The notes below the pieces were generated by a model. The model ran no database searches. It worked only from the letters and a program-made list of their open reading frames with translations, and was not told where the DNA came from. Below, piece by piece: positions 1 to 3,207 of a stretch of 3,207 bases of DNA. The DNA is from a phage. The stretch lies in sequence record PZ195123.1, one strand, 5' to 3'. Positions within the stretch are counted from its first letter, which is position 1, and each line of letters opens with the position of its first letter. A program made the position numbers and the translations under genes.

Positions 1-108
1 TCATCCTTGAAGGCGCTAGGAATGTTTTGCATAAGCGACTCATTTCTGCAGTCTTTTCACCATGCCGTTAGGTTTAGGTGACGGTATATTCCATATACCG
101 GAGGATCT
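1..108 (+). promoter_or_regulatory. 5' untranslated leader of the phage RNA, probably lacking its extreme 5' end; contains the Shine-Dalgarno GGAGG at 100-104, 4 nt upstream of the maturation-gene ATG
   Basis: No intact ORF with a homology-like translation before 109. GGAGG at 100-104 followed by ATG at 109-111. The window does not begin with the G-rich 5' end typical of levivirus genomes (established knowledge), so the true terminus is probably missing. Confidence 0.7.
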
Positions 109-1281
109 ATGTTTCCGAAGTCAAATATCGACAGAAATTACAAGGTTAAGCTTATTACTTACGACAAGAAAGGGAAACTTGTTTCCGACGACTCTTTCGA
201 GCAAGTCGAAAACTATCTCTATCAAAATCGTTCGAATACGTATAAACCTGGTTATATCCGTCGCGACTTTCGAAGACCAACTAACTTCTGGAACGGCTAT
301 CGCTGTTTCAATCAGCCAGTTGGTACTTTCACTCGGAAACTCTCTGATGGTGGGAGACAAGTTGCTGATTATGGTATCGTAAACCCTAATAAGTTTACAG
401 GTAACAGTCAGCACTTGGGGGACAACATGGTTATTTACCCTGGTCCCTTTTCTATAAATATTGATCAGCGTGCTTCCGTCGAAGTCCTCAATAAACTTTC
501 ACAATCAAACCTCAATATTGGGGTTGCGATTGCTGAAGCTAAGATGACTGCTTCGTTACTCGCTAAACAATCTATAGCTCTCATCAGAGCCTACACTGCC
601 GCAAGGCGCGGTAATTGGCGAGAGGTGTTTTCACAACTCCTCATCTCCGAACACCGTTTCAGAGCTCCCGCTAGGGACCTCGGAGGTCGATGGCTCGAAC
701 TGCAGTACGGTTGGTTACCTCTCATGAGTGATTTGAAAGCTGCATATGATTTGCTTACGCAAACCAAACTGCCCGCTTTCATGCCCTTGAGGGTTACCCG
801 TACCGTTGGCGGAACGCACAATTATAAAGTGCGCAACGTCGAATCTGCAGGGGATACTTGGTCCTATAGCGATCGTTTATCGGTGAATTACCGAATATGG
901 TATTTCATTTCCGATCCACGTCTCGCATGGGCTAGTTCCCTCGGGCTTCTTAACCCTTTAGAAATTTACTGGGAAAAGACGCCCTGGTCGTTCGTCGTTG
1001 ACTGGTTCTTACCTGTCGGTAATCTTATAGAAGCCATGAGTAATCCTCTTGGCCTCGACATTATTTCCGGCACGAAGACCTGGCAACTCGAATCAAAACT
1101 TAATGCATCGCTTACTGCTCCGGGTTGGTCAGGAACTGCAAAGCTGACTGCCTATGCTAAAGCATATGACAGATCTACTTTCTATTCCTTTCCTACTCCA
1201 TTGCCGTATGTGAAGTCTCCACTTAGTGGGCTTCACTTAGCGAACGCATTAGCCTTAATCAACCAACGCCTGAAAAGGTAA
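109..1281 (+). CDS. mat: Maturation (A/assembly) protein, 390 aa; pilus-binding minor virion protein of ssRNA phages
   Basis: ORF track 109..1281 (390 aa) with SD GGAGG upstream. The translation has blocks I recognise as conserved with the MS2 A protein (e.g. [65 protein letters not shown]). Length and position as first gene fit a levivirus. Confidence 0.95.
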
Positions 1282-1285
1282 TTAC

Positions 1286-1289
1286 GGAG
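1286..1289 (+). promoter_or_regulatory. Probable Shine-Dalgarno (GGAG) for the coat gene, 8 nt upstream of the ATG at 1298
   Basis: GGAG at 1286-1289 in the 16-nt intergenic spacer between the mat stop (TAA 1279-1281) and the coat ATG (1298-1300). Confidence 0.6.
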
Positions 1290-1297
1290 TTAGCCAT

Positions 1298-1690
1298 ATG
1301 GCAACTTTACGCAGTTTCGTACTCGTCGATAATGGCGGTACGGGGAATGTTACTGTCGTTCCTGTTAGCAATGCCAACGGCGTCGCTGAGTGGCTTTCTA
1401 ATAACTCGCGCAGTCAAGCTTATCGCGTGACTGCCAGTTATCGTGCGTCAGGCGCGGACAAGCGCAAATACACCATCAAACTTGAGGTACCGAAAATCGT
1501 TACTCAAGTTGTTAATGGCGTTGAGCTGCCTGTTTCCGCATGGAAGGCTTACGCCTCTATTGACCTGACCATCCCTATCTTTGCTGCAACCGATGACGTG
1601 ACTGTTATTTCCAAGTCACTCGCCGGCCTGTTCAAAGTTGGGAACCCTATCGCTGAAGCTATCTCTTCGCAGAGCGGCTTCTACGCGTAA
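1298..1690 (+). CDS. cp: Major coat (capsid) protein, 130 codons; also the translational repressor of the replicase gene
   Basis: ORF track 1298..1690. The translation MATLRSFVLVDNGGTGNVTVVPVSNANGVAEWLSNNSRSQAYRVTASYRAS... matches from memory the levivirus coat fold signature (FVLVDNGGTG, NGVAEWLS.NSRSQAY, ELTIPIF-like TIPIFAA) and is closest to phage GA coat protein. Stop TAA at 1688-1690. Confidence 0.97.
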   Translation: MATLRSFVLVDNGGTGNVTVVPVSNANGVAEWLSNNSRSQAYRVTASYRASGADKRKYTIKLEVPKIVTQVVNGVELPVSAWKAYASIDLTIPIFAATDDVTVISKSLAGLFKVGNPIAEAISSQSGFYA

Positions 1691-1881
1691 TGGGTCTGAA
1701 AGCAAAACATAAGGAAAACCTATGTTCCGATTCACAGAGATCGAAAAGACTCTATGTATGGATCGCACTCGCGATTGTGCTATCCGATTTCACGTCTATC
1801 TTCAGTCACTGGATTTGGGGTCTTCTGATCCTCATTCTCCGGACTTTGATGGACTTGCCTACCTTCGTGATGAATGTCTAA
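1690..1881 (+). CDS. lys: Lysis protein (single-gene lysis protein, L-type), 63 codons, overlapping the coat stop and the 5' part of the replicase gene in a different frame
   Basis: ORF track 1690..1881. Its ATG (1690-1692) overlaps the coat stop as TAATG. The product has a basic hydrophilic N-terminus (MGLKAKHKENLCSDSQRSKR) followed by a long hydrophobic stretch (LYVWIALAIVLSDFTSIFSHWIWGLLILILRTL), the typical architecture of levivirus L proteins. Position between coat and replicase is as in MS2/GA-type phages. There is no obvious SD, which fits termination-reinitiation coupling. Confidence 0.85.
   Translation: MGLKAKHKENLCSDSQRSKRLYVWIALAIVLSDFTSIFSHWIWGLLILILRTLMDLPTFVMNV
1707..1725 (+). 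promoter_or_regulatory. Coat-protein translational operator hairpin enclosing the replicase start codon (ACAUA-A-GG-AAAA-CC-UAUGU)
   Basis: Seen in sequence: 1707-1711 ACATA pairs with 1721-1725 TATGT, A1712 is unpaired, GG 1713-1714 pairs with CC 1719-1720, and the loop is AAAA 1715-1718. This is the same architecture as the MS2 operator ACAUG-A-GG-AUUA-CC-CAUGU, with loop adenines at -4 and -7 relative to the replicase AUG at 1722. An AAGGA SD (1711-1715) is embedded in the hairpin. Confidence 0.85.
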
Positions 1882-3172
1882 CTAAACATCCTTCACTTGG
1901 AGACAGTAATTCGGACGCACGCCGTAAGGAATTGGCATATGCCAAACTTATGGATAGTGATCAAAGATGCAAAATCCAAAACAGTAACGGATACGACTAC
2001 TCTCATATCGAGAGTAGCGTACTGAGTGGTATACTCAAGACTGCTCAGGCCCTTGTGGCAAACTTACTTACGGGTTTTGAATCTCACTTCCTGAACGATT
2101 GTTCATTCTCCAATGGAGCCTCACAAGGGTTCAAGTTGCGGGATGCAGCGCCGTTTAAGAAGATCGCTGGGCAAGCAACCGTTACAGCTCCTGCTTATGA
2201 CATCGCCGTGGCCGCCGTTAAAACGTGCGCTCCGTGGTATGCTTATATGCAGGAAACGTATGGCGATGAAACCAAATGGTTTCGTCGGGTATACGGCAAC
2301 GGTTTGTTTTCTGTTCCGAAGAACAATAAAATAGATCGGGCTGCCTGTAAGGAGCCTGATATGAATATGTACCTTCAGAAGGGGGCGGGATCTTTTATAA
2401 GAAAACGCCTCCGCTCCGTCGGTATAGATCTTAACGATCAGACGCGCAATCAGGAATTAGCCCGACTCGGCAGCATTGACGGTTCACTTGCTACTATTGA
2501 TCTTAGTAGCGCTAGTGATTCCATCTCTGACCGCCTTGTCTGGGACCTTCTTCCGCCGCACGTTTATTCATACCTCGCTCGTATTCGTTCGTCTTTCACT
2601 ATGATCGACGGGCGTTTACACAAGTGGGGTCTATTTTCTACCATGGGGAATGGCTTCACATTCGAACTCGAGTCCATGATCTTTTGGGCTCTAAGTAAGA
2701 GTGTTATGCTATCCATGGGTGTTACTGGCTCATTAGGCATCTATGGTGACGATATAATCGTCCCCATTGAATGTGCCCCAACTCTCCTTAAGGTACTATC
2801 CGCTGTGAACTTTCTTCCTAATGAAAAGAAGACGTTCACTACGGGTTACTTTCGCGAAAGTTGTGGTGCTCATTTCTTTAAAGGTGCCGACATGAAACCT
2901 TTTTACTGCAAGCGGCCAATGGAAACCCTTCCCGATGTCATGTTGCTATGCAACAGGATAAGAGGTTGGCAGACCGTTGGTGGAATGTCAGATCCGCGGC
3001 TTTTCCCGATTTGGAAAGAGTTCGCTGATATGATTCCGCAGAAGTTTAAGGGTGGATGCAATCTGGATCGCGATACTTACCTCGTTTCACCGGATAAACC
3101 TGGTGTCACATTGGTTCGTATCGCTCAGGTTCGCTCTGGTTTTAACCACGCGTTCTCGTACGGCCATGAAAA
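1722..3172 (+). CDS. rep: RNA-dependent RNA polymerase (replicase beta subunit), 3'-partial; about 483 codons readable before the N run
   Basis: Manual translation from ATG 1722 in frame 0 runs without a stop to 3172: MFRFTEIEKTLCMDRTRD...GSSDPHSPDFDGLAYLRDECLTKHP...VPKNNKIDRAACKEPDMNMYLQKGAGSFIRKRLRSVGIDLNDQ...LATIDLSSASDSISDRLVW...FSTMGNGFTFELESMIFWA...GIYGDDIIVP...FRESCGAHF...GGMSDPRLF.... It contains the polymerase YGDD motif (2742-2753) and long blocks I recall as near-identical to MS2 replicase. It is missing from the ORF track only because it has no stop in the window. Confidence 0.95.
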
Positions 3173-3207
3173 NNNNNNNNNNNNNNNCTNNNNNNNNNNN
3201 NNNNNNG
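3173..3207. other. Run of ambiguous bases (N) with isolated calls (CT at 3188-3189, G at 3207); masked or unresolved 3' portion
   Basis: Directly visible. It interrupts the replicase ORF, and the 3' end of the replicase plus the 3' UTR are absent from the window. Confidence 0.99.

Follow-up and report, generated by a model that had tools for sequence, protein, structure and literature searches.

The stretch of DNA analysed here (sequence record PZ195123.1; 3,207 nucleotides, referred to below as the window) raises the question of whether it is an RNA phage genome or a DNA locus and, if the former, whether it is a reference GA strain or a divergent isolate. It is virtually certain that the window represents, in DNA letters, the plus strand of an F-specific ssRNA coliphage belonging to genogroup II, GA/BZ13 type (Fiersviridae, Emesvirus japonicum). 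Genomes of the genus Emesvirus, formerly Levivirus, are linear plus-strand ssRNA molecules bearing a GGG hairpin at the 5' end and CCA at the 3' end, and Emesvirus japonicum, or genogroup II, takes in GA, BZ13, KU1, JP34, TH1 and TL2. Using megablast, positions 1-3172 were aligned to positions 29-3199 of GA (X03869) in a single colinear block on one strand, with 94.5% identity over 100% of the called bases, and 91 of the 91 matching records were Emesvirus. DL10 and DL20 matched at 94.6-95.0% nucleotide identity, KU1 and T72 at approximately 85% and MS2 at 74% over 400 nt only. As the best matches all belonged to Fiersviridae, Emesvirus and Emesvirus japonicum (GA, BZ13 strains DL10/DL20/T72, KU1), the identity as a GA-like group II levivirus proposed in an earlier sequence-only reading was upheld. 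That reading had left open whether the genome was the reference GA strain; comparison with reference leviviruses by BLAST identified it as a divergent isolate, because approximately 175 nt, mostly synonymous, differ from GA, and none of approximately 15 billion catalogued proteins is identical to its maturation protein.

The description of the window as near full-length was borne out for 3172 of the 3466 nt (91.5%), which are called, but not for the two ends. Coverage extends from GA position 29 to about position 3234 out of 3466 nt: the first 28 nt of GA are absent, as are approximately 267 nt 3' of position 3172, including the last 49 codons of the replicase gene and the 119-nt 3' UTR. The last position of the window, 3207, lies approximately 232 nt short of the 3' end of the genome. 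Positions 3173..3207 (plus strand) form an uncalled or masked stretch of 32 N, through which the replicase gene continues in register, the three bases called within it ('ct' at 3188-3189 and 'g' at 3207) matching GA 3215-3216 and 3234 in register. The genome does not truly end at 3172.

The genes are arranged on one strand in the order mat-cp-lys-rep, with lys overlapping rep, which is the Emesvirus layout, and the lengths of 390, 130 and 63 residues for the first three products are those given in the sequence-only reading. Matches to the four Emesvirus protein families (Phage_mat-A, Levi_coat, Phage_MS2_lysis and RNA_replicase_B) were all above the Pfam gathering score, which is 25 bits for each of the four profiles. 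The maturation (A) protein gene, mat (109..1281, plus strand; 390 aa), was assigned from its ORF and Phage_mat-A (212 bits against the cut-off of 25), the coat protein gene, cp (1298..1690, plus strand; 130 aa), from its ORF and Levi_coat (132 bits), and the lysis protein gene, lys (1690..1881, plus strand; 63 aa), from its ORF and Phage_MS2_lysis (30.6 bits against 25). The 3'-truncated replicase (RdRp beta subunit) gene, rep (1722..3172, plus strand), was assigned from its translation and RNA_replicase_B (718 bits, profile positions 14-463 of 540); its frame is open from the AUG at 1722 through the last called base, encompassing 483 of 532 codons, and carries the YGDD catalytic motif at codons 341-344 (2742-2753). 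A ribosome site for cp, GGAG, is located at 1286-1289. No read-through (A1) extension is present: the coat gene closes with UAA, and the lysis gene comes next.

The encoded proteins are close to those of the named GA-type strains. Amino-acid identity to GA, DL10 and DL20 is 96.9, 95.6 and 97.9%, respectively, for the maturation protein, 98.5-100% for the coat protein, 95.2-100% for the lysis protein and 97.1-98.1% for the replicase, which has 89-90% identity to that of KU1/T72; the corresponding values against MS2 are 44.5% (mat), 61% (cp), 38% (lys) and 54% (rep). Relative to GA, the maturation protein carries 12 substitutions (S17T, F38Y, T43N, A98G, K166R, L174F, K189R, R254S, H255D, T334S, P336T and S338P), the lysis protein three (E16Q, Y49I and Q51R) and the called part of the replicase 14, and the coat protein differs from that of the GenBank GA entry by A59T and G79V. 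The coat protein is 100% identical to that of DL10 and, once Met1 is removed, also to the chain in the solved GA capsid structure 1GAV; the lysis protein is identical to that of JP34/DL20. Differences from all strains are mostly synonymous, with dN/dS of 0.03-0.12 across mat, cp and rep (mat against GA, 0.047; cp, 0.047; rep, 0.054), and the lys/rep overlap is nearly invariant, its dS being 0.06-0.09 even against KU1. The 96-98% identity of the maturation protein to those of strains isolated on E. coli suggests that F+ E. coli is the host, with the maturation protein binding the F pilus for infection.

Within group II, the sequence places the window in the GA/DL branch and not in the KU1/T72 branch. 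The coat UAA (1688-1690) and the lysis AUG (1690-1692) share one base in a UAAUG junction, confirming the earlier observation that the lysis gene starts at the coat stop codon as in GA and unlike MS2, and alignments located the same junction in GA, DL10, DL20 and the metagenome contigs L007-L016. KU1 (AF227250) and T72 (FJ483838), which constitute the second genogroup II branch, have species, genes and operator in common with the window, but in both of them 18 nt are inserted after the coat stop, ahead of the lysis coding sequence, and 3 nt more before the operator; the window lacks either addition. The genogroup II prototype GA (X03869 / NC_001426) shares with the window its gene set and gene spacing, the 390/130/63 aa lengths, the UAAUG junction and the leader architecture, the window having one extra U (window 89), which falls in the third hairpin loop of the leader. 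The closest named strains are the BZ13 strains DL20 (FJ483839; 95.0% nucleotide identity) and DL10 (FJ483837; 94.6%); DL20 also has the extra U at window 89, and differs from the window by 8 substitutions in mat and 9 in rep. Gene order and Pfam families, and presumably control logic, are shared with MS2 (V00642; genogroup I, Emesvirus zinderi), but the MS2 L gene begins 50 nt within the coat gene (at 1678, the coat gene ending at 1727) and encodes 75 aa, and its genome is approximately 100 nt longer.

Closer relatives were found among metagenome contigs, with 97.7-98.0% nucleotide identity over the whole window. The closest of these in Logan (SRR30876066_388, SRR9703302_512, SRR17509909_88329, SRR30875675_1648 and SRR30876228_551) encode a coat protein identical to that of the window and share its gene layout, the window differing from them by eight private nucleotide states, four of which, at 3040-3156, fall in the last 135 called bases. 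At approximately 98% identity, the lineage recurs in five or more independent public sequencing runs, and it is approximately 5% removed from every named strain. In IMG/VR, only GA itself and one partial relative were found, and an invariant 30-mer retrieved from JGI/ENA metagenomes only two partial KU1/T72-like contigs (L040 and L041), with approximately 86.5-87% identity. The possibility that the window is a recombinant, i.e. a mosaic of different genogroup II strains, was considered, since its coat protein is 100% identical to that of DL10 and its lysis protein to that of DL20/JP34, the ranking of GA and DL10 in sliding identity switches around 2200-2800, and environmental leviviruses have been reported to recombine (PMC3499819). 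However, the coat and lysis proteins are very short and highly conserved, so that their identities come down to 0-3 residues, and identity to L009-L013 is steady along the window, at 95-99.7% throughout in sliding comparison. Neighbour-joining trees calculated for each of the three genome thirds and for the whole genome always grouped the window with L009-L011, without any clade jump. As tree placement was consistent, recombination was rejected and is considered very unlikely.

The window falls with L009-L013 in a sub-clade separate from DL20/DL10. That it might lie outside Emesvirus japonicum, as a new species or genogroup, could be argued from its exact maturation protein, which is absent from approximately 15 billion catalogued proteins and for which no contig encoding the same protein was found, and from the lack of any named strain closer than 95% in nucleotide identity. 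However, the replicase is 97-98% identical to those of GA/DL10/DL20 and 89-90% identical to those of KU1/T72, the latter two belonging to the same species as well, and the window is nested inside the GA/DL clade. These identities already refute a new species or genogroup, to which we assign next to no probability; genome-wide nucleotide identity, a replicase within the species range and nesting inside the clade place the window in Emesvirus japonicum, and the UAAUG junction together with the absence of the 18-nt insertion in its GA-type sub-branch. The window is an ordinary sewage-type strain, approximately 5% from the GA reference.

The contention of the sequence-only reading that the window represents an RNA genome and not a DNA locus fits the data, because predicted folding is very strong (z of -7.8, -6.4 and -9.8), matches to promoters and terminators do not exceed the shuffled expectation, translational-control structures are conserved and the sequence is absent from DNA collections. 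No megablast match was obtained among 72,556 plasmids or 5,426 complete E. coli genomes, and the invariant 30-mer was absent from 185,579 prokaryotic species genomes (GTDB). A DNA entity, whether a cDNA clone, an expression construct or an insert within a bacterial genome or plasmid, would be in keeping with the facts that database records of RNA phages are necessarily cDNA-derived, that GA coat and operator parts are in biotechnology use and that the N-run is a sign of record processing. However, the window contains neither vector nor cellular flank, the plasmids, complete E. coli genomes and prokaryotic species genomes are all without a match, and the pattern of mostly synonymous differences from all strains is that of a natural-looking variant and not of a copy of a laboratory clone, so that a DNA origin is regarded as extremely improbable.

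For an RNA genome, expression would be regulated through the RNA itself, following the MS2/GA paradigm, and candidate control structures were delineated along the window. The predicted fold of the partial 5' untranslated leader (1..108, plus strand; position 1 aligns with GA 29) is a cloverleaf of three hairpins (3-106), whose closing helix pairs an upstream complement (3-8) with the Shine-Dalgarno region of mat (GGAGGA, 101-106). The leader has a minimum free energy of -41.7 kcal/mol (z -4.4), and none of 200 shuffles was equally stable. In a consensus fold of five group II leaders the structure was kept with three compensatory pairs, one of them in the closing helix (3:106, A-U to U-A in KU1); among the control structures examined, compensatory changes were found in this cloverleaf only. 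The ribosome site of mat would thus be sequestered in the folded leader by upstream pairing, a structure supported by the present analysis, and is therefore proposed to be open on nascent chains only, a kinetic mechanism carried over from work on MS2.

The coat gene would be translated freely. In MS2, the 'Min Jou' interaction couples replicase translation to coat translation, and a pairing of this type was predicted in the minimum free energy fold of positions 1001-2000, with a 5' arm GCUUUC in coat codons 32-34 (1393..1398, plus strand), at the position of the MS2 interaction, and a 3' arm GAAAGC (1698..1703, plus strand) immediately 5' of the operator hairpin. The 21 nt around the 5' arm are invariant in 15 group II sequences, although the dS of cp reaches 0.49 against KU1, and the 3' arm is invariant in all group II sequences compared. 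From the prediction and the invariance of both arms we infer that this pairing forms; by analogy with MS2/GA, it would close the replicase start, which ribosomes translating the coat gene would open.

Directly downstream, a translational operator hairpin, a putative binding site for a coat dimer (1706..1726, plus strand), was predicted from its fold, its position and the annotation of GA, whose record labels the same element 'pot. binding site coat protein'. It reads AACAUA-A-GG-AAAA-CC-UAUGUU, with a bulged purine (A 1712), a 2-bp upper stem, a four-base loop (1715-1718) and the replicase AUG (1722-1724) within its 3' arm. The hairpin (-4.9 kcal/mol, z -2.95) is identical to that of GA and invariant in 11 group II sequences, and shares with the MS2 operator the bulged A, the 4-nt loop and the replicase AUG in the 3' arm, its loop being AAAA and that of MS2 AUUA. 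Its score against the Rfam family for the MS2 operator hairpin (RF02359; 18.1 bits, E 0.46) is under the gathering score of 40 because RF02359 was built on MS2-type loops. By analogy with MS2/GA, a coat dimer on this hairpin would later shut the replicase start. A further hairpin, lying in the last part of the coat gene shortly before the lysis start (1655..1681, plus strand), is equivalent to the GA feature at 1683-1707, annotated as 'pot. function in lysis gene control'. It has a predicted energy of -10.2 kcal/mol with a z of only -1.7, and across 11 sequences its pairs are mostly retained, with no compensatory change and two pairs broken in KU1/T72. Because the arms are invariant within genogroup II, no covariation is obtainable for the operator, the lysis hairpin or the Min Jou-type pairing. 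As the UAAUG junction suggests, ribosomes terminating at the coat UAA may restart at the overlapping lysis AUG; lys itself overlaps rep, in a different frame, from 1722 on.

Additional open reading frames were examined and rejected. The overlapping ORF at 62-382 (106 codons) is created by the U insertion, is broken by stops in GA, DL10, L007 and KU1 and varies freely where changes in mat are synonymous, so that a real gene is effectively excluded. Interruptions in KU1, T72 or GA at least were found for the alternative-frame ORFs at 1443-1568, 2113-2334 and 2476-2604, and that at 1897-2025 has lost its start codon or is interrupted in relatives; all were attributed to chance.

The appropriate label for the window is thus partial RNA genome of a GA-like phage (genogroup II, Emesvirus japonicum), for which the logic of a DNA locus (promoters, terminators, minus-strand ORFs) is unsuited; its species and genome organisation are both already known, and it raises no biological question. 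Nothing was retrieved when the literature was searched for Emesvirus japonicum in combination with wastewater. Genogroup II phages serve as indicators of human faecal pollution (PMC6963950), and a further strain from a recurrent lineage of such phages is therefore of modest value for assay design and strain surveys. Together with L009-L013, the window may define a currently circulating genogroup II sub-lineage, distinguished by its distance of approximately 5% from GA, DL10 and DL20 and by the U insertion in the leader loop, and possibly more representative of today's sewage than the references of the 1960s-2000s; we advance this tentatively, as somewhat short of an even chance. If true, such a sub-lineage could have a bearing on primers and probes for faecal source tracking.

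Megablast of the window against 50,697 phage records returned a single alignment of nucleotides 1-3172 to positions 29-3199 of phage GA (X03869/NC_001426) at 94.5% identity, with 94.6% and 95.0% identity to the BZ13 strains DL10 and DL20, respectively, and approximately 85% identity to KU1 and T72. For MS2-type phages the match was confined to about 400 nt in the replicase gene (rep), at approximately 74% identity. Every matching record belongs taxonomically to the genus Emesvirus of the Fiersviridae, and those of group II to Emesvirus japonicum. Closer still (97.7-98.0% identity across the full window) were five Logan assemblies, each from a different sequencing run, found among contigs encoding an identical coat protein. 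Neighbour-joining trees were built from the complete alignment and separately from its three thirds; in all of them the window grouped with three Logan metagenome contigs (L009-L011) within the GA/DL10/DL20 branch, at a large distance from KU1/T72, as expected from the GA/group II lineage proposed in the sequence-only reading. This constant placement gave no evidence of a recombinant. Human sewage commonly contains genogroup II phages (PMC6963950).

The window consists of 3172 called bases followed by a stretch of 35 bases, nearly all N. Three bases were called inside this run and, because all agree with GA in register, the genome continues through position 3207. GA has 3466 nt (genogroup II genomes of 3458-3486 nt have been published; PMC3499819), of which the called part represents 91.5%. 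Absent are the 28-nt hairpin at the 5' end, the final 49 codons of rep and the 3' UTR. The earlier description as near full-length is to be read in this sense, and is slightly generous. Only 8 nucleotide states are private to the window, four of them in the last 135 called bases (3040-3156), adjoining the N-run, and three of these four change an amino acid of the replicase (P440Q, K469Q and P479S). The private changes at 3040-3156 are probably consensus errors caused by thinning coverage, rather than real variation.

The gene order mat-cp-lys-rep on one strand was recovered exactly as previously read. The plus strand contains three complete ORFs, encoding the maturation protein (mat, 109-1281, 390 aa), the coat (cp, 1298-1690, 130 aa) and the lysis protein (lys, 1690-1881, 63 aa), and a rep frame open from the AUG at 1722 to the last called base at 3172 (483 codons), with YGDD at codons 341-344. 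Lengths and spacing are as in the GA record (mat 136-1308, cp 1325-1717, lys 1717-1908, rep 1749-3347), and all four products passed the curated Pfam cut-offs (Phage_mat-A, Levi_coat, Phage_MS2_lysis and RNA_replicase_B). Amino-acid identities to GA/DL10/DL20 were 96.9/95.6/97.9% for mat, 98.5/100/98.5% for cp, 95.2/96.8/100% for lys and 97.1/97.1/98.1% for the called part of rep, with identities to MS2 of 44.5%, 61%, 38% and 54%, respectively. Relative to GA, there are 12 substitutions in mat (S17T, F38Y, T43N, A98G, K166R, L174F, K189R, R254S, H255D, T334S, P336T and S338P), two in cp (A59T and G79V), three in lys (E16Q, Y49I and Q51R) and 14 in rep. Searches of public protein collections gave exact matches for the coat and lysis proteins and none for the maturation protein. 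This absence and the substitutions relative to GA indicate a divergent isolate distinct from the reference strain, a choice previously left undecided.

Once Met1 is removed, the window coat has the same sequence as the protein chain in the solved GA capsid structure (1GAV). Among group II sequences, Ala59 and Gly79 occur only in the GenBank GA entry X03869; residue 59 is Thr in the window, all other strains and 1GAV, and residue 79 is Val in the window, 1GAV and the other strains with the exception of strain SD (Ile). The X03869 differences may be strain-specific changes or old sequencing errors.

A DNA locus is very unlikely, in agreement with the earlier exclusion of a cellular or DNA-phage locus: megablast gave no match to any of 72,556 plasmids or 5,426 complete E. 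coli genomes, and none of 185,579 prokaryotic species genomes contained an invariant 30-mer from the operator region; the 30-mer search of a metagenome collection yielded two partial KU1/T72-like contigs only. Promoter-like and terminator-like matches were at or below expectation, and three 1-kb segments folded far better than shuffled controls (z of -7.8, -6.4 and -9.8). By analogy with its relatives, the phage would have an RNA template and an F-pilus host range.

The mat, cp and rep frames are real genes under purifying selection, since dN/dS was 0.03-0.12 in mat, cp and non-overlapped rep against GA, DL20, the Logan contig L010 and KU1. The lys/rep overlap (1722-1881) is near-invariant across genogroup II, with a dS of 0.06-0.09 even against KU1, versus 0.5-1.0 elsewhere, as expected of a doubly coding segment. 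A further plus-strand ORF (62-382, 106 codons), starting at an AUG in the leader and overlapping mat in another frame, is open only where a single U is inserted in the third hairpin loop of the leader (position 89), as in the window, DL20 and L009-L011. It was judged a chance ORF, as its frame is broken by stops in GA, DL10, L007 and KU1 and its product changes more freely than mat (8 residue changes between the window and L010, against one or two in mat).

For bases 1-125 the predicted structure is a cloverleaf of three hairpins (-41.7 kcal/mol, z -4.4), closed by pairing of 3-8 with the mat Shine-Dalgarno region at 101-106. Comparison of five group II leaders supports this predicted structure, the fold being kept with three compensatory pairs, one in the closing helix. 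The hairpin at 82-100, just before the mat ribosome site, carries a clean compensatory change (A-U in the window, G-C in GA), and its loop length is polymorphic (3 or 5 nt versus 4 nt). The DL20 record (FJ483839, 1-78) opens with ~60-80 nt that could not be aligned with any other group II 5' leader, although the remainder of its leader aligns, and this odd start may be an artefact.

The lysis gene does start at the coat stop codon, as previously read, the UAA (1688-1690) and the lysis AUG (1690-1692) sharing an A; this UAAUG junction implies that lysis translation would depend on ribosomes that end coat translation there. Two insertions absent from the window occur in KU1 and T72, one of 18 nt that precisely separates the coat UAA from the rest of the lysis start and one of three nt before the operator; in their records the lysis gene is annotated as beginning at a non-AUG codon 18 nt past the coat stop. 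A modest hairpin predicted at 1655-1681 may act in lysis control, its counterpart in the GA record being annotated as a potential lysis-control stem-loop. In the minimum free energy fold of 1001-2000, the hexamers GAAAGC (1698-1703), adjoining the operator on its 5' side, and GCUUUC (1393-1398), in coat codons 32-34, are paired, which is the position of the MS2 Min Jou interaction. A Min Jou-type pairing is plausible; its two arms do not vary across 15 sequences and so show no covariation. The putative operator hairpin (1706-1726), with a bulged A, an AAAA loop and the rep AUG in its 3' arm, is invariant in 11 of 11 group II sequences compared and scored 18.1 bits with the Rfam MS2 operator model, below the cut-off of 40.

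Control by RNA structure is established in MS2, fr, GA and KU1 from the work of the Fiers and van Duin laboratories, and the predicted anatomy of the window matches this MS2/GA paradigm. The window is a partial genome with a textbook organisation, from one strain of a species known for a long time; its membership of a sub-lineage approximately 5% from all named strains is the one mildly new aspect.
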